NCBI GenBank assembly: GCA_963650525.1
Contig: CAVJLP010000002.1
Coordinates: forward strand, 3,816-67,815
Direction of reading: 5' to 3'
From: Firmicutes bacterium CAG:534
GTDB lineage: Bacteria > Pseudomonadota > Gammaproteobacteria > Enterobacterales > Succinivibrionaceae
DNA length: 64,000 nucleotides
Shown here: positions 2,868 to 25,676 of the stretch, piece by piece
Layout of the letters: each line of letters begins with the position of its first letter
Position numbering within the stretch: the first letter of the stretch is position 1
The notes under the pieces: model-generated
Seen by the model: only the letters and a program-made list of their open reading frames with translations
What the model was told of the DNA's origin: nothing
Database searches by the model: none
Program-made: the position numbers and the translations under genes

Positions 2868-4598
2868 TTATTTTATGACACCAAGTGCCTGTAAGTATAG
2901 ACGGTCGCGCTTGATATGCTCAGTGGACCAACGAATTTTCTTGGCAGCGGTGTTAACAGTGGTCTCCTCAATGCAATCAAAATAGGATAGCTGTTGCTGT
3001 AGCGAATGATTCTCCATCCAGCTTAACAGGGATTTCTCAGCACTTATATTTAGCTTGGTATCGTGAGTTTCATCACCGTTAGGTTTACCTAGCTTTTCTT
3101 TAACCTCATGAAGCTTGGCATAGAGGAAGCTGAGATATCCAAGGGCAACGAACTGTACCATCATACGGCCCTTTAGCACATCTGGAGTCCATACCCTAGG
3201 ACGAGCACCATCAGTGTATTCCTTATCAAGCTTAAAGCAGTCTTCGATACGATTGCGCTTACGATATTTCTTAAGAACCTCAAAGCAATCCTTCTCATGA
3301 TTGGTCAGGATAGTGAAAATGCCATAGCTCTTAGCTCTCTCGTCTAAGTACTTGGTATTGAAATCGATGGAAGTAATTTCACCTTTGCGACGATGAATAA
3401 TAAGCGCCTTCTTTATGGTATTTTGAGCAGACTGGGTAAATTCAGTCTCACCTGCTAAGAGTTGATTTTTAAGCTCTGTGAGCTTGTTATATTCGTTAAT
3501 ACATTGTTGCTGAGCCTTGGTCTCAGAGCGGAATACGTGTAGGTAAAGTCTAAAGGCTTTGGTCTCAATGTCGCCTTTCTTTTTATCTTTAGATGCATGT
3601 TGTCTTTCCCAAGAGAATTCATGCATTAGTCTTACGCTGAAGCCATGAATTTCATTTTGATCAAAGGGACATACTGTAGCCGCGCTATGTAAGGAGTCTA
3701 CCTTATCGATAAAGGCATCCTTGATCCATTTGACATTGTCTGGGCAGGCGGTAATAAAATCCATATGCGAGCGGACTAAATCAAGGATATTGTCTTCAGA
3801 GTAATATCCCTTATCTGTTACTAGCTGTGGACGTTTAAGCTTAAGCACATCAAATTGCTTTAAGGTATTCTCAATTGAGATCACATCAGGAATATTGCCT
3901 GGTTGTTTAGCAAAGGCTATAGGCTGGTGATTCTCCACAGAGTATAAGAGCAGTAGCTTAATGGTATTTAAGCCATCTCCGTCCTTGTTAAAGCCTTGTC
4001 TGGCTTCAATCTGCTTTTCAGAGTAGGTAGAGATAGTAGTAGAGTCATAAGCAATAGAATCGCCTTCTTTTAAGTGCGAAGCACGAGCCTTAAAGTATTT
4101 CTGAATAAAGGTTTCATCAAGTCCAATCTTTTCAAATAGATTGTGATAAGAGCTTTCTCCTATAAATCCATCATAGGGAATGGCATGGGTTAATTGCCAG
4201 TTCTCAAAGGCTGATAAGGTATTGTGATCAGATACCACCAAATAACGTGCCAAAGATATGATCTTTAATGCTGTGTCAGGATCATCTGCATAACATTTCT
4301 CTACATCGGCATCAATCTTTGAGCTCTTTCCTACCCAATCTAAGATCTCAGTCATCCCCACACGTACGCGTGTAGCTTCCCTTACCTGTTGCATCTCCTC
4401 CTTGGTGCGTCTTGGGCGAGTCTTTCTTATTTCACCAGTCTTAGGATCTTTAATGCCCATAAGCTTTTCAGACAAGATCTTCATCTTCTTAGTTTCGCGA
4501 TCATATTGAACTATACGCTTATAGACATAGATATCACCATTAGGACGTTTACGTTCAACAAGGATTTCACGAGTCTGACCAGTATAAGGGCGAGCCAT
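2868..4598 (-). CDS. IS4/IS1634-family DDE transposase
   Basis: 576 aa. DDE candidates are YDSTTIST, LVTDKGYYSEDN and the IS4 signature Y-x2-R-x3-E-x6-K, readable as YRKRNRIEDCFKLDK. Confidence 0.85.
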   Translation of the reverse strand: MARPYTGQTREILVERKRPNGDIYVYKRIVQYDRETKKMKILSEKLMGIKDPKTGEIRKTRPRRTKEEMQQVREATRVRVGMTEILDWVGKSSKIDADVEKCYADDPDTALKIISLARYLVVSDHNTLSAFENWQLTHAIPYDGFIGESSYHNLFEKIGLDETFIQKYFKARASHLKEGDSIAYDSTTISTYSEKQIEARQGFNKDGDGLNTIKLLLLYSVENHQPIAFAKQPGNIPDVISIENTLKQFDVLKLKRPQLVTDKGYYSEDNILDLVRSHMDFITACPDNVKWIKDAFIDKVDSLHSAATVCPFDQNEIHGFSVRLMHEFSWERQHASKDKKKGDIETKAFRLYLHVFRSETKAQQQCINEYNKLTELKNQLLAGETEFTQSAQNTIKKALIIHRRKGEITSIDFNTKYLDERAKSYGIFTILTNHEKDCFEVLKKYRKRNRIEDCFKLDKEYTDGARPRVWTPDVLKGRMMVQFVALGYLSFLYAKLHEVKEKLGKPNGDETHDTKLNISAEKSLLSWMENHSLQQQLSYFDCIEETTVNTAAKKIRWSTEHIKRDRLYLQALGVIK

Positions 4599-5090: not shown

Positions 5091-6209
5091 TTATTTGTCT
5101 TGGGTGATCGCTTTATCCTTCATGAAGTACACCTTGGCAAACACGATCAGGATAAAGAAGATACCTATCTGGCCATTTAACGGATAAAGTATGCCGATTA
5201 GCTTGCCAAAGCCTATCTGTGCTCCAAAGTAGGCTATAACACCTAAAATCAGAGTGATAACTAATCTTACGCTCTTACTGCCGATAAACTGCTCGGTCTT
5301 GTTGATGATAACCCAGAACATAGGTGCTGCAGTTGAGTAGATGCCCAGCAGCAAAATCACAGAGAAGAACATTGCCAGTACAGGGGTAAACTGATTTGCC
5401 AGATAGATATTTGGAACTTGAAGTTTGGCAATTTCATCAGGGAAGCACAGCATGGCTGCCATCATAATGCCAGATGCCAGCATAATAACAACGCCACCAA
5501 TAAAGCCACCAAGGAAGGCCTCTTTGCTAGAGTTTGCTTTTGAGCCTAATGCAGTAAAGAAGGGGGTTGAACCAAAGACCATGCAGGTTGCATAGAGCAC
5601 ACCTGAAAACCAGGCAGAATCCAATGCAGAATACTGGGCAAACCACCATGATTTGGTTGCTCTTAAATCATAAATCACTTCCCAGTTCTTGGCCCAGTCA
5701 CCATTGAAGTTAATTAAGGTAACGATACCAATAATTAGAGTGAAAATGATGATCACAGGTCCGATGGTACCCACAAGATCTGCAAGTTTTTGCAGGCCAA
5801 GGAATACGGTTATAATGCATAATACTGCCATAAAAATGGAACCTGAGGCAGCAGGCAGACCAAAATATTCAGATGCCAGTGCGCCTGTTCCTGCTATCAT
5901 GATGGATACAACGCTAAACAGGAAGATGATGGTTAACCATTCAAGGAAAATTCCTAAATATTTACCACAGTAGTATCTGAATACCTGAGTGTGATGCTTG
6001 AGCTGAAGCTCGTAGCCCTTTTGCATTAGGGCTCCGCCTAGGAATGCAAACAGGAACATGCTGACAAGGATACCAATCAGCCCCTTGGGTCCGAAGGATC
6101 CAAAAAACTGCATGATTTCCTGACCTGTTGCGTAGCCTGAGCCAATGATGAAGGCACAATAGGCACCGGCAAACATAATGACATTGCGTATGCTTACTTT
6201 GTTGTTCAT
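5091..6209 (-). CDS. YkvI-family membrane protein (putative amino-acid/solute transporter)
   Basis: 372 aa, polytopic and very hydrophobic. The N-terminal motif GSGYATGQEIMQFF is typical of the YkvI/COG3949 family. Confidence 0.6.
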   Translation of the reverse strand: MNNKVSIRNVIMFAGAYCAFIIGSGYATGQEIMQFFGSFGPKGLIGILVSMFLFAFLGGALMQKGYELQLKHHTQVFRYYCGKYLGIFLEWLTIIFLFSVVSIMIAGTGALASEYFGLPAASGSIFMAVLCIITVFLGLQKLADLVGTIGPVIIIFTLIIGIVTLINFNGDWAKNWEVIYDLRATKSWWFAQYSALDSAWFSGVLYATCMVFGSTPFFTALGSKANSSKEAFLGGFIGGVVIMLASGIMMAAMLCFPDEIAKLQVPNIYLANQFTPVLAMFFSVILLLGIYSTAAPMFWVIINKTEQFIGSKSVRLVITLILGVIAYFGAQIGFGKLIGILYPLNGQIGIFFILIVFAKVYFMKDKAITQDK

Positions 6210-9039: not shown

Positions 9040-10071
9040 ATGACTTTTAAGTGGAATAATGATTACAACTGTTCAGCTCATGCCAGCATCATCAAAGCCC
9101 TTGTAAATATTGAAAACGAGACCTACAACGGCTATGGTCTGGATGAATGGTGTGAAAAAGCCTCCCAGATTATTAAGGATAAGCTAAACGACCACAATGT
9201 GGATATACATTTTCTGGTGGGCGGTACACAGACTAATGTCACTGTTATCGATCATATACTTCGTCCCTGGGAAGCTACTGTATGTGTTGAATCCGGGCAT
9301 ATCAACGTTCATGAAACCGGAGCTCTTGAGCATTTAGGACATAAGTGCATTGCTGTACAGGGGAAAAACGGCAAGCTGACATCAGTTGCCTTAAAAAATG
9401 TTGCCAAATCCTTTGCCGATTCTGCAATCAAGGAACATGTTGTTGAACCTAAGCTTGTATATATATCGCAGCCATCCGAGCTTGGAACTGTATACAGCAA
9501 AGCTGAGCTAAAGGAATTAAAGAGCATCTGTGAACAGAATGGCTACTATCTTTTCATTGATGGAGCCCGTTTAGGTTACGGACTTGCTGCAACTGATGTT
9601 ACTTTTAGTGATTTACCCTCTCTGTGTGATGTGTTTTATATAGGTGGCACAAAATGCGGGGCCATGTTTGGCGAGGCTGTTGTTTTTACAGATAAATCAT
9701 TAAGCTCTCATTTTAGAGCCTCGATTAAGCAAAACGGCGGCATGCTAGCAAAGGGATGGCTACTGGGGTTGCAGTTTTTTGAGCTCTTTAAGGATGGTCT
9801 ATATTTTGATATTACAAAAAAGGCAGTGAGCTATGCTCAGATCCTAAAGACTGCGTTTATTAAGCATGGTGTAAAGCTATATACAGATAGTCCTACTAAT
9901 CAGCTTTTCGTTGTACTTAATGATGCTCAGTTAGAGAAAATTTCAAAGCATCATCAGCCGGAGGTTCAATGGCGAGAGTCTGACGGGCAAATGGTAGTTA
10001 GGTTCTGCACAAGCTGGAGTACCAAGGAGGAGGCTTTGAATTCTCTTATAGAGGATATCGAAAGCCTTTGA
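9040..10071 (+). CDS. Threonine aldolase / beta-eliminating lyase family PLP enzyme
   Basis: N-terminus MTFKWNNDYNCSAHASIIKAL....E.YNGYGLDEW; also GGTQTN and GGTKCG (PLP Lys). ATG 9040 is preferred over the TTG at 9025 in the ORF track. Confidence 0.7.
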   Translation: MTFKWNNDYNCSAHASIIKALVNIENETYNGYGLDEWCEKASQIIKDKLNDHNVDIHFLVGGTQTNVTVIDHILRPWEATVCVESGHINVHETGALEHLGHKCIAVQGKNGKLTSVALKNVAKSFADSAIKEHVVEPKLVYISQPSELGTVYSKAELKELKSICEQNGYYLFIDGARLGYGLAATDVTFSDLPSLCDVFYIGGTKCGAMFGEAVVFTDKSLSSHFRASIKQNGGMLAKGWLLGLQFFELFKDGLYFDITKKAVSYAQILKTAFIKHGVKLYTDSPTNQLFVVLNDAQLEKISKHHQPEVQWRESDGQMVVRFCTSWSTKEEALNSLIEDIESL

Positions 10072-10270
10072 TGCGTTTTGCACTTTATGTCGCTGTATTT
10101 AAAGTTAACCTACTGAAAATTAAATAAAAACCAGTATTTTGTGCTTTGCCTGATTGTAGTATAAAAGTCAGGCTATGAGTTATGAATCTATAAGATTTAA
10201 ACGGGATAAAACACAGTTTCGTTGCTAGGTTCAGATGAATTAGAGCTGTTAAAAAGTTAGGAGAAAAACA

Positions 10271-10594
10271 ATGTTTGCATTTCGTAAGGATGCTGTTTTC
10301 GAGCAGGTAGCACCTGGTGTAAAAAGGGCTGTTTTAGTACACGAGGGTGGCATGATGTGTGTTGAGAATGTCTTTGAAAAGGGCAGTGAAGGTGCAATGC
10401 ATTCACATCCTCACGAGCAGGTTACTTATGTATTGTCAGGAGAGTTTGAATTTACTATAGGTGATGAGACCCATATCGTAAAACAGGGAGATACCTTACA
10501 TAAAAATCCTAATATTATTCATGGTTGTAAATGCCTTGAAGCGGGGGTACTGTTAGATGTCTTCACTCCACAGCGTGAGGATTTTCTTAAGTAG
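10271..10594 (+). CDS. Cupin domain protein
   Basis: 107 aa. Cupin motifs G.(x)5HSHPHEQ and G..L....N..H. Strong SD (aggag) 8 nt upstream. Confidence 0.7.
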   Translation: MFAFRKDAVFEQVAPGVKRAVLVHEGGMMCVENVFEKGSEGAMHSHPHEQVTYVLSGEFEFTIGDETHIVKQGDTLHKNPNIIHGCKCLEAGVLLDVFTPQREDFLK

Positions 10595-10626
10595 CTTATA
10601 GAATTTATAATGACAATGCATAAATA

Positions 10627-10655
10627 AGCCGCAATGTATATATATATTGCGGCTA
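10627..10655 (-). terminator. Rho-independent terminator of pyrBI
   Basis: agccgcaat / attgcggct form a 9-bp stem. On the minus strand it is followed by ttatttatg. It lies 31 nt beyond the pyrI stop. Confidence 0.6.
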
Positions 10656-10685
10656 AATCATATTGGTATGCTGAGAGCTCAGCTC

Positions 10686-11201
10686 CTACTTGGAGACTTT
10701 AACTTCAAGTCCGTTGTACTCAAGGATTGTCTCGCGGCTGAACTCACGTTCGCAATAGTGGCAGCGCATCATGACATTACCGTTTTTGTCAGTGCGAATT
10801 AAAAAGCGTGGAGTTGCACCAAGCTCAATATGAGTAATGCAGTTTGAGTTAGGGCATTTGAAATCGCCAACGGTTTCATGAGGAAGGCGTAGCTTGTATT
10901 TGTCTACAACCTTATAATCCTTGATTTCATTGACAGTGGCATTAGGGGCAAGAATTGCAAGCTGTCCGGTTTCTGATGGGGAAAACACAACATTTGCGAT
11001 CTTTATGAGATCTTTTTTACCCATATCGCCTGAACGCATATTAAAGCCAACTGTGAGCTCATTGTTCTTAGACAAGAACTTGAACATGCGCAGAATATTG
11101 ATAGCCTGACCCGGAGCAATATGATCGATTACAGTACCATTTGAAATGGCTTCAACCATCAAGTGTCCTTGATCGGCGTTGGTATTAGGATTAACAGCCA
11201 T
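10686..11201 (-). CDS. pyrI: Aspartate carbamoyltransferase regulatory subunit
   Basis: Contains VEAISNGTVIDHI and the Zn-domain cysteines CPNSNC...C.YCE. It directly follows pyrB with a 1-nt gap. Confidence 0.92.
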   Translation of the reverse strand: MAVNPNTNADQGHLMVEAISNGTVIDHIAPGQAINILRMFKFLSKNNELTVGFNMRSGDMGKKDLIKIANVVFSPSETGQLAILAPNATVNEIKDYKVVDKYKLRLPHETVGDFKCPNSNCITHIELGATPRFLIRTDKNGNVMMRCHYCEREFSRETILEYNGLEVKVSK

Positions 11202-11202
11202 T

Positions 11203-12126
11203 TTAAATCTCCTTGTTCATGACCAGTGCCAAAATTGCCTCACGGGCGTATACGCCATTCGCTGCCTGCTTGAAGTAGTATGCGTGAGGGTTCTGATCGA
11301 CATCGATGGTGATCTCATCAATACGAGGAAGTGGGTGCAGGATCTTCATATTTTCCTGAGCAGTCTCAAGCATATCTGCAGTAAGAACAAACTTAGAACG
11401 CAAATTCTGATATTCGGTTTCATCAAAGCGCTCTTTCTGTACGCGGGTCATATAAAGAATGTCTACCTCAGGGATGACCTCCTCTAGGGTATCGTGGAAG
11501 GTAACCTTGATATTGCGTTCTTTTAGAATGTCCAGAATGTACTGAGGCATAGCCAGAGATTCAGGAGATACCAGCATGATCTCGGCATTATAGAGTGATA
11601 AAGCCTCTGCTAGGGAGTGGACTGTACGACCATACTTCAAGTCACCAACAAAGGCGATCTTGATGCGATCAAGATGGCCCTGAGTTTCATAGATTGAGAA
11701 TAGGTCTAGCATGGTCTGAGATGGATGCTGATTGGAACCGTCGCCGGCATTAATAATAGGTACCGGAGCCAAATCGGCAGCTAAACGCGCTGCACCTTCA
11801 CGGTGGTGACGGATCACCAGTGCATCCACATAGGAGGTAATGATGCGGATTGAATCCATCAGGGTCTCACCTTTTTTGCCAAGTGAGGTATTTGCGGCAT
11901 CAGGGAAGCCGATAACTTGACCGCCCAGACGGTGAATAGCAGTTTCAAAGGAAAGACGGGTACGGGTTGAGCCTTCAAAAAAGGTTACACCAATGAGTTT
12001 GTCTTTTAGTAGATCGTTGCGGGGATGAGCCTTTAATTCACGAGCAGTTTTTAGAATAAGCTCGATATGTTCTTTGGTGAACTCGGACACAGATATGATA
12101 TCTGTTTGGAAAAGAGGATTGGTCAT
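11203..12126 (-). CDS. pyrB: Aspartate carbamoyltransferase catalytic subunit
   Basis: [16 protein letters not shown]... aligns with E. coli MANPLYQKHIISINDL. Contains [15 protein letters not shown] and HPLPR. The 35 extra codons from TTG 12231 in the ORF track have no homology. Confidence 0.92.
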
Positions 12127-12371
12127 ATAAGTCCCTTGTAACTGATGAATGTAACAGTTTGGAACGGGACGCTCTTTCAGGAGCGAATATGTGCTTTGAT
12201 GCACTGTTCCTGAAAACTGTATTATACGCAAACTATCGTCAATGGGCTTGGCTTATTTTTAATTGCTTTGATTTTTAAGAAAATTTTGTCTTTGGGAAAT
12301 ATTTCTGGAGGAGATTTTGGGCAAAATTAAAATGCCAGATTTAATTTTTTTGTTTTTAAATAAAAAAATGC

Positions 12372-12401
12372 TTTACAAACCTAAATTGTCTCCTATATAA
12401 T
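12372..12401 (+). promoter_or_regulatory. Sigma70-type promoter of tRNA-Trp
   Basis: TTTACA (12372-12377), an 18-nt spacer, TATAAT (12396-12401), then a GC-rich discriminator (agcgcc) about 10 nt before the mature 5' end. Confidence 0.5.
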
Positions 12402-12415
12402 AGCGCCTGTTTCAC

Positions 12416-12491
12416 AGGGGCGTAGTTCCAATGGTAGAACAGCGGTCTCCAAAACCGACGGTTGAGAGTTCGAGCCTTTCCGCCCCTGCCA
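12416..12491 (+). tRNA. trpT: tRNA-Trp (anticodon CCA)
   Basis: AGGGGCGTAGTTCCAATGGTAGAACAGCGGTCTCCAAAACCGACGGTTGAGAGTTCGAGCCTTTCCGCCCCTGCCA. It folds as a cloverleaf with anticodon loop CUCCAAA and an encoded CCA end. Nearly identical in layout to E. coli tRNA-Trp. Confidence 0.95.
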
Positions 12492-12655
12492 TCTAATTGC
12501 AAATTCTGCAGATTTTCCTGAATATAGATTAAAGACGTAGCAGTGTTGTGTTTTCTGCGCTGTGCTATATTTTGTCTTGCGCCCATATCGTCCCGTCAAA
12601 AGGGATGATGTGAAGTACTCCTCCTTTTTTAATAATCATTCTCCAGCGGATAAAA

Positions 12656-13585
12656 TCAGAGCTTGTCTTTAAAATGATGTTGCAGGAATGCCCAGATAGC
12701 AGCTTTGCCATCATCTAAAAAAGCGCATGTTCCCTCATTTTGATAATGAACTTTGTTTAATAAAAGTATATCGTATGGCAGATAATGCAAGCTTGCATCA
12801 TACGGCAGTAAGGATATCCCCTTAGATTTTAAAAATACCTTTAACGAGGCAAGATATGGGATATTGCTGTTTTCCTCTATATATATATCAGCACGTTTCT
12901 TCCTAAGATGCCAATTTGTTATATTTCGTGGTTCTACATTATTCAAAGTGCTATTTTGATTAAATCCCTGATCCTGAAGCGGTATGTTGTGAGCTGTATT
13001 AGGAGTTGCTGCTATATTTTCAGCTGAGATTGGGGGCTGGTAGAAATAGTCGTCAGGCAGTGGGATCTCATCAGAGGTCGTGTTAGAGGCTACAAAAGCT
13101 GCTGATTGCTCAGCATCATAAATACCTGTGTTGGATTTTTGAGTATTTAAAGTAGTTACAGCTTTTTTAGGTAAGTCTGAAGTTTTAGCAGTATCACCTG
13201 TAGTTGTGGCAGTTTCTACATCGGTGTAGGAGGTTTTGGTGTTTTGCCTGATTTCCTGATTTTGGGGAAGAGAAGCTGCGGGAGCGTTTGAATTCTCTGC
13301 TGTTTTAGCAATATCTTTATTGGATTGAATGGATGTTGATGCTTTATTTTGCGCAAATACTTTTTCTTGAGTATCAGCAATGTTTTGGCTGGATATTTCT
13401 TTGCTTTGTAGCTTTGGGATATTTTGATCTGCTATTTGATCAGATACGGTATTTTCGCTATTTGATAGCGTAGTGCAAGCATTTATGGTGACATTTTGTT
13501 GATCAATGCTACTGGAGCAATCTTTTTTAAGCAAAGATCTGCCCTTATTATTGAGTTTCCATCTAATGTCTAAATTGCTTTGCAT
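12656..13585 (-). CDS. Hypothetical S/T/N/Q-rich protein; possibly a divergent DNA polymerase III psi (HolD)-like protein
   Basis: 309 aa. About 200 aa of low-complexity sequence is flanked by an N-terminal RWKLNNKG (compare E. coli HolD DWQLQQLG) and a C-terminal GKAAIWAFLQHHF (compare ARAALWQQICTYEHDF). It lies near rimI, as holD does in E. coli. The functional call is speculative. Confidence 0.55.
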   Translation of the reverse strand: MQSNLDIRWKLNNKGRSLLKKDCSSSIDQQNVTINACTTLSNSENTVSDQIADQNIPKLQSKEISSQNIADTQEKVFAQNKASTSIQSNKDIAKTAENSNAPAASLPQNQEIRQNTKTSYTDVETATTTGDTAKTSDLPKKAVTTLNTQKSNTGIYDAEQSAAFVASNTTSDEIPLPDDYFYQPPISAENIAATPNTAHNIPLQDQGFNQNSTLNNVEPRNITNWHLRKKRADIYIEENSNIPYLASLKVFLKSKGISLLPYDASLHYLPYDILLLNKVHYQNEGTCAFLDDGKAAIWAFLQHHFKDKL

Positions 13586-18411: not shown

Positions 18412-18483
18412 GATATGAGCGTGCTTTCAGATTTGTAATTTTTGGCATAATTGCAAAACGTAATCATTTCAAAGGAGTACAGC

Positions 18484-18762
18484 ATGGGTTTAGCCTCCCT
18501 TATTTGCGGCCTTGTCACGCTCTGTATGGCTTTGTTTTCTGCAACTGGTCTGGGGGTAGTCGGCATAGCTTTAGGTATTATAGGAATTATCCTTGGCGCA
18601 TTGGGACGCAAGGATGCCGATCAGCGTAGCATGGCAACCGCCGGCCTTATTATTTCGATAATTGGTCTATTCATAAATATCATCGTGCTCGTTGCCTGTG
18701 TAGGATGTTTAGCTGCCTTAGGTATTGGCCTTGGTGCAGTTGCAGCAGGTGGCGGACTTTAG
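18484..18762 (+). CDS. Small Gly/Ile-rich membrane protein (DUF4190-like)
   Basis: 92 aa from ATG 18484, with SD aaggag 7 nt upstream. Three hydrophobic G/I/L-rich segments. The TTG 18451 start in the ORF track was rejected. Confidence 0.55.
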   Translation: MGLASLICGLVTLCMALFSATGLGVVGIALGIIGIILGALGRKDADQRSMATAGLIISIIGLFINIIVLVACVGCLAALGIGLGAVAAGGGL

Positions 18763-19535
18763 TGCACCCTTTTTTAAATATTCTTGGGCACAATGTGCCT
18801 CTTTATGGCCTGATGATCGCACTTGGTATGCTGATCTCAGGTAGCATTGCCTATCAGACAGCAAAGCATCGTCATCTTGATGCTGATGGGGTGTTGGCTA
18901 TAAGCGGATATGCTGTTTTAGGCGGTTTCATTGGAGCTAAGCTTTTATATCTTGCAACTGAGTACAGACAGCTTGATATAAGTCGGGTATTTGATCCTAG
19001 CTACAGACTAAGTCTTATTAATGCAAGCGGCTTTGTCGTAATAGGCGGTCTCATTAGTGGCGCCCTTGTAGGCTTTCTAGCTGCCAGATTTCATAATTTA
19101 GATTATCGAAGGCTCCTTGAAAATACCATTTTTGCTCTGCCTCTCGCTCAGGGCTTTGGGCGGATAGGTTGTTTTTTTGCAGGTTGCTGTTATGGCGTGC
19201 ATTATGATGGTCTTTTAAGCGTGACCTTTCCTCATGGATCAATTCCGGGATCTGAGCCGAGACTTCCAATTCAGCTTATTTCTGCAACAGTGCTTTTTAT
19301 TTTGTCCTTAATTTTATATTTCATCTCTAAAACAGCTTATAGGAAGTATCTGATAGTGATCTATATCGGCTCTTATGCCTCTCTTAGATTTATTATTGAA
19401 TTCTTCCGTGCAGATGAAGTGCGCGGAATATTTGCCGGCTTGTCACTTTCGCAGTATCTGTCGTTGTTGCTTTTATCCTTGATGTCTGCATATGTTCTTT
19501 TAAGGGAGTTTATCCTAAAAAGAACACATGCCTAA
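18762..19535 (+). CDS. lgt: Prolipoprotein diacylglyceryl transferase
   Basis: VHPFLNILGHNVPLYGLMIALGML.., GAKLLY, GRIGCFFAGCCYG. The proposed GTG start overlaps the upstream TAG (TAGTG). The first 19 codons of the ORF-track start (18705) lie inside the previous gene. Confidence 0.8.
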   Translation: MHPFLNILGHNVPLYGLMIALGMLISGSIAYQTAKHRHLDADGVLAISGYAVLGGFIGAKLLYLATEYRQLDISRVFDPSYRLSLINASGFVVIGGLISGALVGFLAARFHNLDYRRLLENTIFALPLAQGFGRIGCFFAGCCYGVHYDGLLSVTFPHGSIPGSEPRLPIQLISATVLFILSLILYFISKTAYRKYLIVIYIGSYASLRFIIEFFRADEVRGIFAGLSLSQYLSLLLLSLMSAYVLLREFILKRTHA

Positions 19536-19564: not shown

Positions 19565-20089
19565 CTACTGCTTTAAAAAGACCCACATACAGGCTGTTTT
19601 CCCAGCAATGGCATTTCCACCTGCACACGTTACACGATCAATTTTAGCTGTGCTTTTGACGGCTATCATGGAGACTACAGTTGTCTTGATCTTGTCGGCA
19701 AGTTTCTGCAGATCTATCTTGATAATTTCATCTCCGGCAGTGACGCTGTCACCCACCTTTTTTAGGGCAGTAAAGCCCTCTCCTGAGAAAAAATCAGTTC
19801 CGATACCAAACTTTACATAGATTTCGGCACCGCATTCTGTTTTTATTACAAAAGCAGAATTTGATGTAAGTATGCGGGAGATTACTCCATTGCAGGGCGC
19901 AACAAGGCAGTCATTATCGGGAATTAAGGCACAGCCATCACCTGCAATACGCTCACAGATCACCGGATCTGGAACGTCATCTAAGGCAATGAGGGTTCCT
20001 GATACTGGAGCTGTAAGCTCTAGATCAGCCTCTTCATTTGATTCTTTGGAGCCTGAGGAGAAAGAGAATAGTTTGGATAAAAATGACAT
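19565..20089 (-). CDS. PTS EIIA-Glc (Crr) homologue lacking both active-site histidines
   Basis: Ungapped alignment with E. coli Crr over about 80 residues. I count 37 identities by hand (APxSG, DVPD, GDG, VAP, NxAF, FGIxT, GEGF). H75 is Ser (TSNSAF) and H90 is Lys (YVKFGIGT). Confidence 0.85.
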   Translation of the reverse strand: MSFLSKLFSFSSGSKESNEEADLELTAPVSGTLIALDDVPDPVICERIAGDGCALIPDNDCLVAPCNGVISRILTSNSAFVIKTECGAEIYVKFGIGTDFFSGEGFTALKKVGDSVTAGDEIIKIDLQKLADKIKTTVVSMIAVKSTAKIDRVTCAGGNAIAGKTACMWVFLKQ

Positions 20090-20094
20090 AGGGA

Positions 20095-21759
20095 TCAGCT
20101 GTTTAGGTTATCGATGATAGAGGCAATTTCCTGTCCTCTAAAGGTGTTCATAACTTTGTCAAAAAGTTCTTCATCAAAGTATGGCTCATTGCCGTCAAGA
20201 TCCAGTCTTTCAACAGCCGTACGTAATGATGCAATTTCAAAGCTGTCTACGGTTGCATAGGATACACCTATGTGCCAGAAAAAAGGCATAAGCTCAGCTC
20301 GTCCTGCAAAGCGTCCTGCTACACCTACAGGGATCCCGGAGCGGTGGGCAGCTCTTGCAGCAGTTACAATAAGCTTTGCAAGAGGTGGGGTAAAGGTTGA
20401 ATCATCAGGACGTGGTGCACAAGCGTATTCGGCAAGTGATGAAGTTCCGATAATAAACATGGAAAATTCACCGGCAAAGGCCTCGGCAGATAAAACCGCT
20501 GCCGGAGTTTCGATCATAAGTGCCAGTTCATATTGTGAGTGGGGCTTGTGCTCAAAGCTAAGCTCCTTTTGACAATCTGATGCTAGCTTCTTTAAATATC
20601 TTGCCTCGGAGAATCTTGTGACCAGTGGAAAGACTATGGTGAGCTTGCGTGCAGGATCTGATTGCATCAGTGCACGTAGCTGTTTTTTTAACAGCGATGA
20701 GCTTACGCAGGCTCCATAGCCGCGAAGTGGACCTGTGGTATCACCGGAGAGTTCAAAAATAGGTTTTTTATCACCAGCAAAATCAAAAGTTCTTGCGGTA
20801 ATGGGAAGATTAGGATTAATAGGCTTGATGATTGCGGCAAAGCGTTCAATCATTTCTTTTTCATCAGGCTCATGATCCATACTCAAAAATAAGAATTCTG
20901 AGCGCAACAGCCCTAGTCCATAGTGTTTGTAGACGTTATTTAAGCGCCCGTTCTGGAAGGTACCTATGGAGCAGGCAATAGTAATAGGCAGTGTGCTGTC
21001 ATCATCGGCAACATCTGCAAAAAAGCCTTGTTTGGCAATTGCCGCTTCACACATTTCAAAGGGGGCATCAACTGTAACACAGCCGGTATTGGCATCTAAT
21101 AGTAATCTTGAGCCCTGAGTTATTTCTGTTGCGCCTGTGGCTCCGAAAATTGATGGAATAGAAAGTTCACGCAGGGCAGTTGCAAGATGTCCTGTAGTAC
21201 GGCCCTGCTCTAGGATCACGCCTTTAACAAAGCGAGTTTCGAGAGATAGAAGCTGGGCTGGAGTTAATACCTTAGCCACAATAATGGTGTCTTCGGTAAG
21301 GGTTGGCATATCCGTGATAGTTACACCGCGCATAAACAGAGCCTGTACAAACTCTCTTATCAGAAGCTCAATTGAGCGTAGCTCATACAGGTTGCTTTGA
21401 TCGTCTAAATCATATTGAAATTTAAAGAACTTTAATCCTTGAAGATATACGGTTCTAGCTGCCATCGGAGCTGTATCACCGTTTTTTATAAGCTCAATTA
21501 CCTTTTCAACATTATCAGCGGCGGTGAGATAGCCTGCCGTAGCACCATAGAGATCGCGTTGACTGTCAAGTGCAGGATTGGCAGTCTGACGCAGACGATC
21601 GGAGAAAATCTTTAGCGTGCGACGATATACCTCTGACTCTCCTTCAGGATCTAAGGCCCAGGGTCTGTCAAAGTCAGGATTGTATACCGCACGGGTAAGC
21701 ACTCGTGCGTGTCCTGAACTAATACCTGATGATGAGGGAATGCCGTTAATGGTGTACAT
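20095..21759 (-). CDS. PTS Enzyme I (PtsI) homologue with a degenerate PEP-binding/catalytic site
   Basis: Collinear with E. coli EI: GIPSSSGISSG, GRTTGH, LRSEFLF, ARTFDFAGDK, MIETPAA, IGTSSL. Catalytic positions differ (see finding). Confidence 0.8.
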   Translation of the reverse strand: MYTINGIPSSSGISSGHARVLTRAVYNPDFDRPWALDPEGESEVYRRTLKIFSDRLRQTANPALDSQRDLYGATAGYLTAADNVEKVIELIKNGDTAPMAARTVYLQGLKFFKFQYDLDDQSNLYELRSIELLIREFVQALFMRGVTITDMPTLTEDTIIVAKVLTPAQLLSLETRFVKGVILEQGRTTGHLATALRELSIPSIFGATGATEITQGSRLLLDANTGCVTVDAPFEMCEAAIAKQGFFADVADDDSTLPITIACSIGTFQNGRLNNVYKHYGLGLLRSEFLFLSMDHEPDEKEMIERFAAIIKPINPNLPITARTFDFAGDKKPIFELSGDTTGPLRGYGACVSSSLLKKQLRALMQSDPARKLTIVFPLVTRFSEARYLKKLASDCQKELSFEHKPHSQYELALMIETPAAVLSAEAFAGEFSMFIIGTSSLAEYACAPRPDDSTFTPPLAKLIVTAARAAHRSGIPVGVAGRFAGRAELMPFFWHIGVSYATVDSFEIASLRTAVERLDLDGNEPYFDEELFDKVMNTFRGQEIASIIDNLNS

Positions 21760-21819
21760 ATTAACTAAAGCCTCTTAATGTCGCCTTAATCTTCTATTTT
21801 CTAGATCGTAACTTTTTAG

Positions 21820-22605
21820 CTAATTATTCGCCACTGTTTTGATATCAGTTACTGCGTTCTTTCTCAATTCCACATAATATTTGGTGCCGGCACAGACTGC
21901 AGCTGGCGGAATAATAAGATTTAATAGCGGAATGGCAAGACATATTGCTATTACTGCACCAATAATGAAGGTAGGTAATGTTGATGATTTGAGATCCTCA
22001 CGCATTAATTTAAAGGAAATCTTGTGATTATCATAGGCATAGTCAACGTACTGAAGACAGCCCATCCAAGATCCCAGCAAAAACCAGGGCACAGGTGAAA
22101 TAAGGTTCACTCCTGGAATTACGGATATGATAAGACACAGCAAAGCTCTTGGTAAAAAGAAGCACTGCTTGGCAAATTCGCGTTTTAGAATTCTGGGAAT
22201 ATCCCTGATGATCTCAGAGATGCTGGCATCAGGCGAGCTTGTCCCCTTAATGGCCATCTCTGCTTTGTCTGCTAGCAGACCATAGAAGGGGGAGGCTATG
22301 ATAGTTGCTATGGTTGAAAAGAAATAGCAACATACAAAGATGATCATGAGTGCTGCAATAACCGTCAGCAGATAGAGCAGAAACATCAAATAGTCTGGCA
22401 GATATTCTTTTAAGGAGAAGATCACCTCATTGATTAGTGAGTAGGCAAGGTAGCCTCCTAAGCTTAGGAGTAATAAATTTACGATTACGGGAATAATCAC
22501 GTAGGCACGGCATTCCTTGGAAAGCGCTAATTTAAAGCCCTGAGCAAGACAATCAAAGGTTGTACCGAGGCTTACACTATTTCTTTTTACATTGTTGTCA
22601 GACAT
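21820..22605 (-). CDS. cysZ: Sulfate transporter CysZ
   Basis: Collinear with E. coli CysZ: YFFSTIA..IASPFYGLLA, DIPRILKRE, LPRA, DYAYDNHK, IPLLNL. ATG 22605 (SD taaggac) is preferred over the longer ORF-track start. Confidence 0.85.
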   Translation of the reverse strand: MSDNNVKRNSVSLGTTFDCLAQGFKLALSKECRAYVIIPVIVNLLLLSLGGYLAYSLINEVIFSLKEYLPDYLMFLLYLLTVIAALMIIFVCCYFFSTIATIIASPFYGLLADKAEMAIKGTSSPDASISEIIRDIPRILKREFAKQCFFLPRALLCLIISVIPGVNLISPVPWFLLGSWMGCLQYVDYAYDNHKISFKLMREDLKSSTLPTFIIGAVIAICLAIPLLNLIIPPAAVCAGTKYYVELRKNAVTDIKTVANN

Positions 22606-22719
22606 GGGAGTGTCCTTAGTGCATTTTGCAGGTAAAATATTAACCAAATTTTTTTAGATTGCGAAAGTCTATAAAAGGAATTCTATTTTAGCAAAGGCAT
22701 CAACTTACTGGGGGTTTGC

Positions 22720-23496
22720 ATGTCTCTTAATGATTCAAGTGCGATCATTTTAATTGTAGGCGCTTTGGCAGTGATCGCATTCGTGATCCACGGCTTGTGG
22801 TTTTCAGGCAAAATCTCAAATCGTAAGTTAAGTAAAACGTCATCTTCCGATCAGGCTTTGCAAAATGCCAATGGTCTTGGCAAGGTGCGTATTGTTTCAA
22901 GCGGCAGTGATGAGCAGAATACTGCCAGTTCTCCTAAGTCTTTTAAATATATGGATTCTCAGGTGCAGCTTGAGGAACCCAAAAAAGAGCATGAAGCTGT
23001 TGACACGTTGAAAATGGAGGGGCACTCCATCGAGCCTGAAGCTAAGATTAAGCCTCAGGATATATATGAAATCAATATTGAATCGGAAAACGGTCACCCT
23101 TTTGCAGGTGATCATATAAATGAATTATTTTCCGAGTTCGGCTTTGTTAGAACAAAGCAGGGGCTGTATGTCTGTCCTGAAGCTGTGGGCAAGGATTTAT
23201 CAGAAACTCAGATAGTATTTCGTATCTGCTCTTTAACTAAGCCCTACAGCTTTCCTGAGGACATGAAAAATTATGAAACTCCGGCTATTGCTCTTTATAT
23301 GAAGCTTCCGGAGATTGGCAAGGGCGAAGGCTATTATACCTGCATGTATGCTGCCGCCTCTGAGATCGCCCGTCGCCTAGGTGGAAAATTTACCACTGCT
23401 GAGGGTGAACCACTAAGTGAGCAGATATTGAATGATACTCTGGATCTTTTACACAACTATGATGAGCCTGCTAACATCAGGCATCAGGTCTATTAA
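22720..23496 (+). CDS. zipA: Cell division protein ZipA (short form)
   Basis: N-terminal TM IILIVGALAVIAFVIHGLWFS and a C-terminal FtsZ-binding-type domain (..FRICSLTKPYSFPEDM..YETPAIALYMKLP). Divergent from cysZ and upstream of ligA, as in E. coli. Confidence 0.8.
   Translation: MSLNDSSAIILIVGALAVIAFVIHGLWFSGKISNRKLSKTSSSDQALQNANGLGKVRIVSSGSDEQNTASSPKSFKYMDSQVQLEEPKKEHEAVDTLKMEGHSIEPEAKIKPQDIYEINIESENGHPFAGDHINELFSEFGFVRTKQGLYVCPEAVGKDLSETQIVFRICSLTKPYSFPEDMKNYETPAIALYMKLPEIGKGEGYYTCMYAAASEIARRLGGKFTTAEGEPLSEQILNDTLDLLHNYDEPANIRHQVY

Positions 23497-23591: not shown

Positions 23592-25676
<2,085 letters not shown>

Follow-up and report, generated by a model that had tools for sequence, protein, structure and literature searches.

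A ptsI-crr-type gene pair in Succinivibrionaceae

In bacterial carbon signalling, Enzyme I (EI) and EIIA-Glc of the phosphoenolpyruvate (PEP)-dependent phosphotransferase system (PTS) serve, in the textbook view, as entry point and master regulator, and genes encoding relatives of both lie side by side on the minus strand of the DNA analysed here, a 64,000-nucleotide stretch of contig CAVJLP010000002.1 (hereafter the window). The host is a Succinivibrionaceae bacterium close to Succinatimonas. The EI-like reading frame runs through 554 codons without interruption, as a preliminary description of this region had reported, although that description did not state that the gene lies on the minus strand. 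The EIIA-like gene begins 5 nt past the EI-like stop codon, and on the other side a 60-nt gap separates the EI-like gene from the stop codon of cysZ. A promoter and terminator scan of the locus gave nothing above shuffled expectation. The features of the locus are listed in Table 1.

Gene order places the pair at a familiar site. On the annotated E. coli chromosome (locus L001), from which our reference PtsI, Crr and HPr sequences were taken, the genes run crr-ptsI-ptsH-cysK-cysZ, and zipA-ligA diverge from them; in the window, the EIIA-like gene, the EI-like gene, cysZ and the divergent zipA-ligA follow one another in the same orientations, and ptsH and cysK are absent. Because the order next to cysZ, zipA and ligA matches that of E. 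coli, the pair represents the vertically inherited ptsI and crr orthologues at their ancestral locus rather than extra paralogues; the same synteny led us to reject an extra paralogue or horizontal acquisition as the origin of the genes. No HPr-like open reading frame (ORF) was found in the window, within 10 kb on either side of the pair in 35 family loci (described below), or in three loci from Ruminobacter.

The EI-like protein has the three-domain architecture of Enzyme I (an N-terminal HPr-binding domain, the phospho-histidine domain and a TIM barrel), as judged from Pfam, PDB and fold matches. PEP-utilizers (PF00391, E 1e-13) and PEP-utilizers_C (PF02896, E 8e-36) were both detected, and the match to PEP-utilisers_N (PF05524) was weak (23.4 bits, with a cut-off of 24.4). 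The earlier proposal that the 554-aa product is collinear with Enzyme I is borne out by end-to-end phmmer alignments to the full-length structures 2hro, 2wqd and 2hwg (E 1e-41 to 1e-35). An AlphaFold2 (AF2) model built from 19 family sequences reached a mean predicted local distance difference test (pLDDT) score of 83, and its top Foldseek matches were full-length Enzyme I proteins, with a template modelling (TM) score of 0.63 to 2hwg_A, which is Enzyme I in its closed, phosphorylated form. Enzyme I C-terminal domains alone gave a TM of about 0.75, and the weaker fold matches included PEP/pyruvate-type TIM-barrel lyases. Identity to E. coli PtsI is about 23%, and the protein scores below both NCBIfam cut-offs for Enzyme I (170.6 bits vs 341.7 for TIGR01417; 131.3 vs 824 for PRK11177).

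Table 1. Positions of the EI-like/EIIA-like pair, its recoded residues and its flanking genes in the window, with the corresponding genes of Ruminobacter locus L082 (numbered within that locus) in the last two lines.
Feature	Position	Strand	Basis
EI-like gene, 554 aa, ptsI orthologue with recoded PEP site	20095..21759	minus	ORF, Pfam, PDB matches, AF2 model
Shine-Dalgarno-like AAGAGG, 11 nt upstream of EI-like ATG	21771..21776	minus	sequence read directly
PEP-utilisers_N region, residues 5-106, part of former HPr-binding domain	21442..21747	minus	Pfam 23.4 bits
E at residue 126 (R126 equivalent)	21382-21384	minus	codon check
Swivelling phospho-histidine domain, residues 155-226	21082..21297	minus	Pfam PEP-utilizers E 1e-13
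His191 (= E. coli H189)	21187-21189	minus	alignment, codon check
TIM-barrel domain, residues 259-519, ligand pocket remodelled	20203..20985	minus	Pfam PEP-utilizers_C, alignments, codon check
Retained barrel residues R286 (=R296), R323 (=R332), K331 (=K340), E417 (=E431)	within 20203..20985	minus	
G349 (=R358)	20713-20715	minus	codon check
S440-S441 (=N454-D455)	20437-20442	minus	codon check
A481 (=C502)	20317-20319	minus	codon check
R483 (=E504)	20311-20313	minus	codon check
EIIA-Glc-like gene, 174 aa, crr orthologue	19565..20089	minus	Pfam PTS_EIIA_1 E 2e-31
S78 (=H75) of EIIA-like protein	19856-19858	minus	codon check
K93 (=H90) of EIIA-like protein	19811-19813	minus	codon check
cysZ, conserved upstream neighbour of EI-like gene	21820..22647	minus	Pfam EI24/CysZ
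zipA	22720-23496	plus	marks ancestral ptsHI-crr locus
ligA	23604-25676	plus	marks ancestral ptsHI-crr locus
Ruminobacter Enzyme I (L082)	10001-11716		
Ruminobacter EIIA (L082)	11996-12532		

Distribution of the EI-like family

A word-indexed search of 5.8 billion proteins recovered about 120 full-length homologues of the EI-like protein with identities of 40-100%, and those that carry an organism name come from Succinivibrio, Anaerobiospirillum or Succinivibrionaceae. When 1.84 billion cluster representatives (50%-identity clusters) were searched exhaustively with a profile, four full-length family clusters scored 790-834 bits, one further cluster scored 316 bits, and other Enzyme I proteins scored 276 bits or less. 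Scanning one genome per species yielded 35 EI-like loci, all of them from Succinivibrionaceae (Succinatimonas, Succinivibrio, Anaerobiospirillum, 'Avisuccinivibrio' and unnamed metagenome-assembled genomes), and nearly all, at least 30 of them, have the order dnaQ, rnhA, lytic transglycosylase, ligA, zipA, cysZ, EI-like, EIIA-like, pntBA. The recoding described below, as read from the alignments, is common to three named genera, Succinatimonas, Succinivibrio and Anaerobiospirillum. Family members are named 'putative PEP-binding protein' or 'hypothetical protein' in the databases because both proteins score below the NCBI curated cut-offs, and some records are still labelled PtsI.

The closest relative of the window lies on contig CAVFIO010000014.1 (L002), which has been placed in an 'Akkermansia muciniphila' bin. 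Thirteen syntenic genes on this contig have 73-99% protein identity to those at 13.7-27.3 kb of the window, including 99% for PntA/PntB and 97% for the EI-like protein, and the contig is almost certainly a misbinned piece of a Succinivibrionaceae genome.

The PEP-specific half of the EI site is recoded

Substitutions in the active site were checked by phmmer, by MAFFT alignment against E. coli PtsI and by a 245-sequence alignment of family and canonical proteins. The EI-like protein retains H189, R296, R332, K340 and E431 (E. coli numbering), which we take, in line with the structures 2HWG and 2XZ7, to contact the phosphoryl group. The preliminary description had reported a histidine in the phospho-histidine domain, and this residue is in register with H189 and present in 121 of 121 sequences; E431, also said there to be retained, is likewise confirmed by alignment, and all five residues are 100% conserved in about 120 sequences, down to 40% identity. 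The arginine of ARTFDFAGDK is retained as described, although it corresponds to R332 and not to R296 as had been proposed; the true R296 is kept as well, in the segment GLLR286SEF.

The remaining five of the nine PEP/Mg2+-site residues are gone (R358 to G, N454 to S, D455 to S, R465 deleted and C502 to A). The corresponding motif changes, IGTSSL for IGTNDL, GYGA for GWRA and VAGRFAG for MCGELAG, were reproduced in every alignment and agree with the replacements first noted at N454-D455 and C502; the Arg-to-Gly change in GPLRGYGA is also real, but the residue concerned is R358 and not R332. Recognition of the enolpyruvate/carboxylate part of PEP, proton donation and provision of the second Mg2+ ligand are taken, again in line with 2HWG/2XZ7, to be the roles of C502, N454-D455 and the loops that carry R358 and R465. 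The short loops carrying I360/R361/L364 and D464/R465/N467 are deleted, and S450, N274, E350 and N352 are also replaced. Displacement of the Cys, Asn-Asp and Arg equivalents to neighbouring positions, which would have undone the earlier interpretation, was ruled out, as all three alignment methods agree on their loss, and a 19-sequence alignment of the family contains no invariant Cys anywhere. Outside the barrel, the N-terminal residues R126, D82, D129 and D132 are 85-98% conserved in canonical Enzyme I and are not conserved in the EI-like family; R126, for example, is present in 96% of canonical proteins and is variable (S/D/V/E and others) in the family.

The catalytic residues of Enzyme I almost never change: the full canonical constellation HRRKRENDRC is present in 142 of the 146 non-family cluster representatives among the matches listed, and the other four comprise three with a single substitution and one fragment. 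All family representatives, in comparison, have the constellation HRRKGESS[P/T/L]A, so that the comparison across related genomes called for when the variant was first noticed finds the recoding itself conserved. Among the about 120 homologues, G(358), S-S(454-455) and A(502) vary hardly or not at all, and E444, R483 and D340 are nearly invariant. The pocket of the family also contains new basic residues, with R at E504 in 95% and R or K at L355 in about 81%. At 14 alignment positions, most of them in the loops 350-358, 454-458 and 502-504, both groups are strongly conserved yet have different residues. Conservation of a different residue in each group means, to judge from the alignments, that the PEP-specific half of the EI site is rebuilt in a defined, conserved manner and not degraded. 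Apart from the one new Arg (E504R), the replacements are all smaller (G, S, S, A or a deletion), which suggests a larger substrate or an enlarged pocket.

Such a defined pocket would be expected if the TIM barrel, alone or together with the His domain, had acquired a new catalytic activity on some other small molecule, with the EIIA-like protein as an accessory subunit. The invariance or near-invariance of the recoded residues themselves is what a defined new ligand would require, the smaller replacements hint at a larger substrate, and the PEP/pyruvate-type TIM-barrel lyases among the weaker fold matches point in the same direction. Nevertheless, we consider this explanation quite improbable, given that the locus offers no metabolic gene context, its neighbours being the ancestral cysZ, zipA, ligA and pntAB, and that the full EI architecture is kept, including the former HPr-binding subdomain with its usual relative constraint. 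Compared with canonical EI, this subdomain shows no disproportionate relaxation, and for that reason it probably still binds something.

In Anaerobiospirillum the helical part of the former HPr-binding subdomain carries an insertion of roughly 100-120 residues (P0061, P0068 and P0079), which is also present at loci L032 (10001-11905) and L034 (7491-9428).

The EIIA-Glc-like partner lacks both active-site histidines

The protein encoded downstream contains an EIIA_1 domain (PF00358, E 2e-31), and its best PDB matches by phmmer are 3our_B, 4jbw_M and 1ggr_A (E 1e-31 to 1e-29), all EIIA-Glc chains from protein complexes. It falls below the cut-offs of PRK09439 (138 bits vs 212) and, narrowly, of TIGR00830 (97.0 vs 97.5). 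An AF2 model from a 10-sequence alignment (pLDDT 51.8) was too poor and was not used for a fold search, and a single-sequence homologue search returned only nine close relatives and no new domain fusions.

H90 is the phosphorylated histidine of EIIA-Glc. The absence of active-site histidines already noted for the window protein, which has S78 and K93 at the H75 and H90 positions and G97 at that of D94, extends to the whole family, since both are gone in all 35 EIIA-like proteins (N, S or T for H75; T, S, R, K or N for H90). Because the replacement residues vary, these two sites are evidently no longer in use. Other positions near the old active site are fixed: D38 and V40 never vary, and positions 41 and 88 have each undergone a conservative replacement (F to I and F to Y, respectively) that is itself invariant. 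The N-terminal motif of EIIA-Glc acts in E. coli and Vibrio as an amphipathic membrane anchor. A motif M[GS][FL][FL]S.[LF]F begins all 35 EIIA-like proteins (MSFLSKLF in the window copy; MGLFDKLKSL in E. coli), and the family thus keeps a putative N-terminal membrane-anchor helix.

Could the EI-like protein still be a working PEP-dependent Enzyme I, with R483, R/K346 and the two serines compensating for what was lost and HPr encoded elsewhere? H189 remains, as does half of the site, the family pocket has gained basic residues at positions 504 and 355, and the absence of HPr applies to the window and the 10-kb flanks of the loci rather than to whole genomes. We judge this very improbable, however. 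D455 and C502 are 100% conserved in the 125 canonical representatives of the 245-sequence alignment, and substitutions at C502, E431 and D455, like R126C and G356S, strongly impair Enzyme I (PMC13598208, a 2026 paper). The family has no conserved Cys to stand in for C502 and does not conserve R126, the cognate EIIA has no histidine to accept phosphate, and the protein reaches half of the NCBIfam EI cut-off score.

Ruminobacter and the joint loss of catalytic residues

The cluster scoring 316 bits in the profile search is the Enzyme I of Ruminobacter (P0122/P0275, locus L082), the nearest relative outside the EI-like family; Ruminobacter, too, is a genus of the Succinivibrionaceae. Its locus resembles those of the family, with the order rnhA-SLT-ligA-zipA-cysZ...EI-EIIA and no ptsH within 10 kb, and the motifs RTFDF and TPAQ are common to both. 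Unlike the family, the Ruminobacter Enzyme I keeps N454, D455, Q458, R465, C502 and E504, and the EIIA encoded at the same locus keeps both histidines. Because the whole NPFLGWR358AIR loop is already missing while these other residues stay, the Ruminobacter pair looks like an evolutionary intermediate. The Ruminobacter protein may itself count as a partly altered EI.

All 35 genomes with a recoded EI have a His-less EIIA, and Ruminobacter retains both sets of residues. Loss of the EI catalytic residues and of the EIIA histidines therefore track together across genomes, and no other observation argues as strongly that both proteins changed as a unit.

Selection, coupling and fusion

The two genes are adjacent, with the EIIA-like gene immediately downstream, in all 35 loci that extend far enough, and both ORFs are intact in every one of these loci, across three genera. 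Compared with the closest relative, L002, the EI-like gene has a ratio of nonsynonymous to synonymous substitution rates (dN/dS) of 0.021 and the EIIA-like gene one of 0.075; the values for ligA, cysZ and zipA are 0.054, 0.032 and 0.108. Across the whole family, the EI-like and EIIA-like proteins have diverged about as far as CysZ.

The loss of ptsH and cysK from the locus and of catalytic residues from both proteins might be read as the mark of a decaying relic of a lost PTS en route to pseudogenes. This can hardly be correct: dN/dS (0.02-0.08 for the pair) is as low as that of the housekeeping neighbours, the replacement residues are invariant, a natural in-frame fusion exists, and decay in sister genomes, which had been raised as grounds for abandoning the earlier interpretation, is not seen in any of the 35 genomes. 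Pseudogene decay is ruled out by dN/dS and residue conservation.

The fusion, of 738 aa, occurs in one Succinivibrio lineage and joins an EI-like part (residues 1-549) to an EIIA-like part (555-730). It is found on many independent contigs (P0015/P0286 and others), and unfused 549-aa alleles fall in the same 90%-identity cluster. The proposal made in the preliminary description, of a co-adapted, PTS-derived pair that would lack normal PEP phosphotransfer, fits well with the recoded site, the low dN/dS, the adjacency, the fusion and the joint loss.

A proposed regulatory module derived from a phosphorelay

The reading that we favor, and of which we are about half convinced, is that the ptsI-crr locus has been converted from a PEP-driven phosphorelay to a different, strongly selected two-protein regulatory (sensor/effector) module that uses His189 and the phosphate pocket. 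The EI-like protein would no longer autophosphorylate from PEP nor feed an HPr-to-EIIA relay; it would still use His189 and the phosphate pocket, either with a phosphorylated or anionic metabolite in the enlarged pocket or through phosphorylation by a non-PEP donor, and would probably keep switching between the open and closed domain arrangements known from Enzyme I. Its state would be read out via the tightly coupled, sometimes fused EIIA-like protein, which would not be phosphorylatable and, with its N-terminal helix and hydrophobic partner-binding face retained, would bind targets at the membrane, like unphosphorylated EIIA-Glc in inducer exclusion. The conversion would date to the ancestor shared by Succinatimonas, Succinivibrio and Anaerobiospirillum, once Ruminobacter had branched off.

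Much of the evidence would also suit a pure pseudoenzyme pair, in which the EI-like protein is a scaffold or ligand sensor and the EIIA-like protein a binding regulator, no phosphoryl chemistry takes place, and His189 and the Arg/Lys/Glu cluster have structural or docking roles. The pair has given up the proton-donor Cys, one Mg2+ ligand, two Arg-bearing loops and both EIIA histidines and does not conserve R126, and the locus contains no HPr and no obvious phosphoryl acceptor. We regard this as somewhat unlikely, as the complete conservation of H189, R296, R332, K340 and E431 would have to be explained in a lineage where clearly disused sites (H75 and H90 of EIIA, R126 and D82 of EI) have drifted freely. 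Because these five residues are invariant while the disused sites have drifted, the phosphoryl pocket appears to be still selected, and we lean towards some retained use of it.

A more specific form of the regulatory reading is that the EI-like protein is an active phosphotransferase for a bulkier, non-PEP donor or ligand, with phosphorylation of His189 kept and signalling by conformation or binding via the non-phosphorylatable, membrane-anchored EIIA. We consider this form unlikely; if true, it would add a new branch to the PEP-utilising enzymes and mean that a dominant gut and rumen bacterial family practises PTS regulation independently of phosphorylation.

Several points weigh against a regulatory module that still uses the pocket. 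The assignment of residues to phosphoryl or pyruvate binding, which follows 2HWG/2XZ7, is tentative, and R296, R332, K340 and E431 could be kept for structure or for docking of the His domain. The searches covered the 64-kb window and 10 kb on either side of the pair in 35 genomes, so that the genomes may encode HPr, further PTS proteins or another, canonical EI elsewhere. Covalent fusion of the two proteins speaks against a module that works simply by bind-and-release (sequestration). Finally, mirror-tree rate covariation with LigA controlled was not specific to the pair (partial r of 0.70 for EI-EIIA vs 0.75 for EI-ZipA), and we did not use this result as evidence of coupling.

Comparison with known PTS-derived systems

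The window pair resembles E. coli PtsI and Crr in its place by cysZ/zipA/ligA, the three-domain EI fold, the EIIA_1 domain, the retention of H189, R296, R332, K340 and E431, and the N-terminal amphipathic motif of EIIA. The differences are that EI has R358, R361, N454, D455, R465 and C502 replaced or deleted and does not conserve R126, that H75 and H90 are missing from EIIA and ptsH and cysK from the locus, and that both proteins fall below the NCBIfam equivalog cut-offs. A precedent for PTS proteins kept for regulation after loss of the relay histidine is Crh of Bacillus subtilis, an HPr paralogue that lacks the phosphorylatable His15 and is a purely regulatory binding protein. Crh, however, is an extra paralogue beside a complete PTS and is phosphorylated at Ser46, whereas in the Succinivibrionaceae the orthologues themselves appear converted, and two proteins together. 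Incomplete, regulation-only PTSs without sugar permeases, such as EI-Ntr/NPr/EIIA-Ntr of Brucella (PMC2937029), resemble the window pair in consisting of PTS proteins put to regulatory use. The Brucella-type systems appear to keep a working PEP-to-EI-to-NPr-to-EIIA relay; the window EI-like protein, unlike them, has lost catalytic residues and has no GAF domain. A literature search found no description of the EI-like/EIIA-like family or of the PTS content of Succinivibrionaceae, and the paper on the S. dextrinosolvens Z6 genome makes no mention of the PTS.

In an entire group of bacteria abundant in rumen and gut, the orthologues of both proteins would have lost PEP-specific chemistry and the phospho-acceptor histidines together, yet they remain under strong purifying selection. 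This provides a natural experiment on which functions of EI and EIIA-Glc need no phosphotransfer and on how a phosphorelay becomes something else, for which Ruminobacter can serve as the intermediate stage. On the practical side, automated annotation of some of these proteins as 'phosphoenolpyruvate-protein phosphotransferase' or 'PtsI' may wrongly credit a PTS to these organisms in metabolic reconstructions of the rumen and gut.

Other features of the window

The remaining window genes are ordinary housekeeping genes, among which pntAB also neighbours the pair. A small membrane ORF of the DUF4190 type (18451-18762, plus strand) overlaps by 58 nt the start of a gene of the Lgt (prolipoprotein diacylglyceryl transferase) family (18705-19535, plus strand). 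The position of these two genes, with the EIIA-like gene on one side and pntB on the other, is peculiar to the window and its closest relatives (L002-L005); the rest of the family does not have them there. Two minus-strand ORFs, at 5091-6209 (372 aa) and 12656-13585 (309 aa), had no Pfam match at E <= 1e-5. A 576-aa minus-strand ORF at 2868-4598 has a DDE transposase domain (PF01609) and is a probable insertion sequence among the housekeeping genes.

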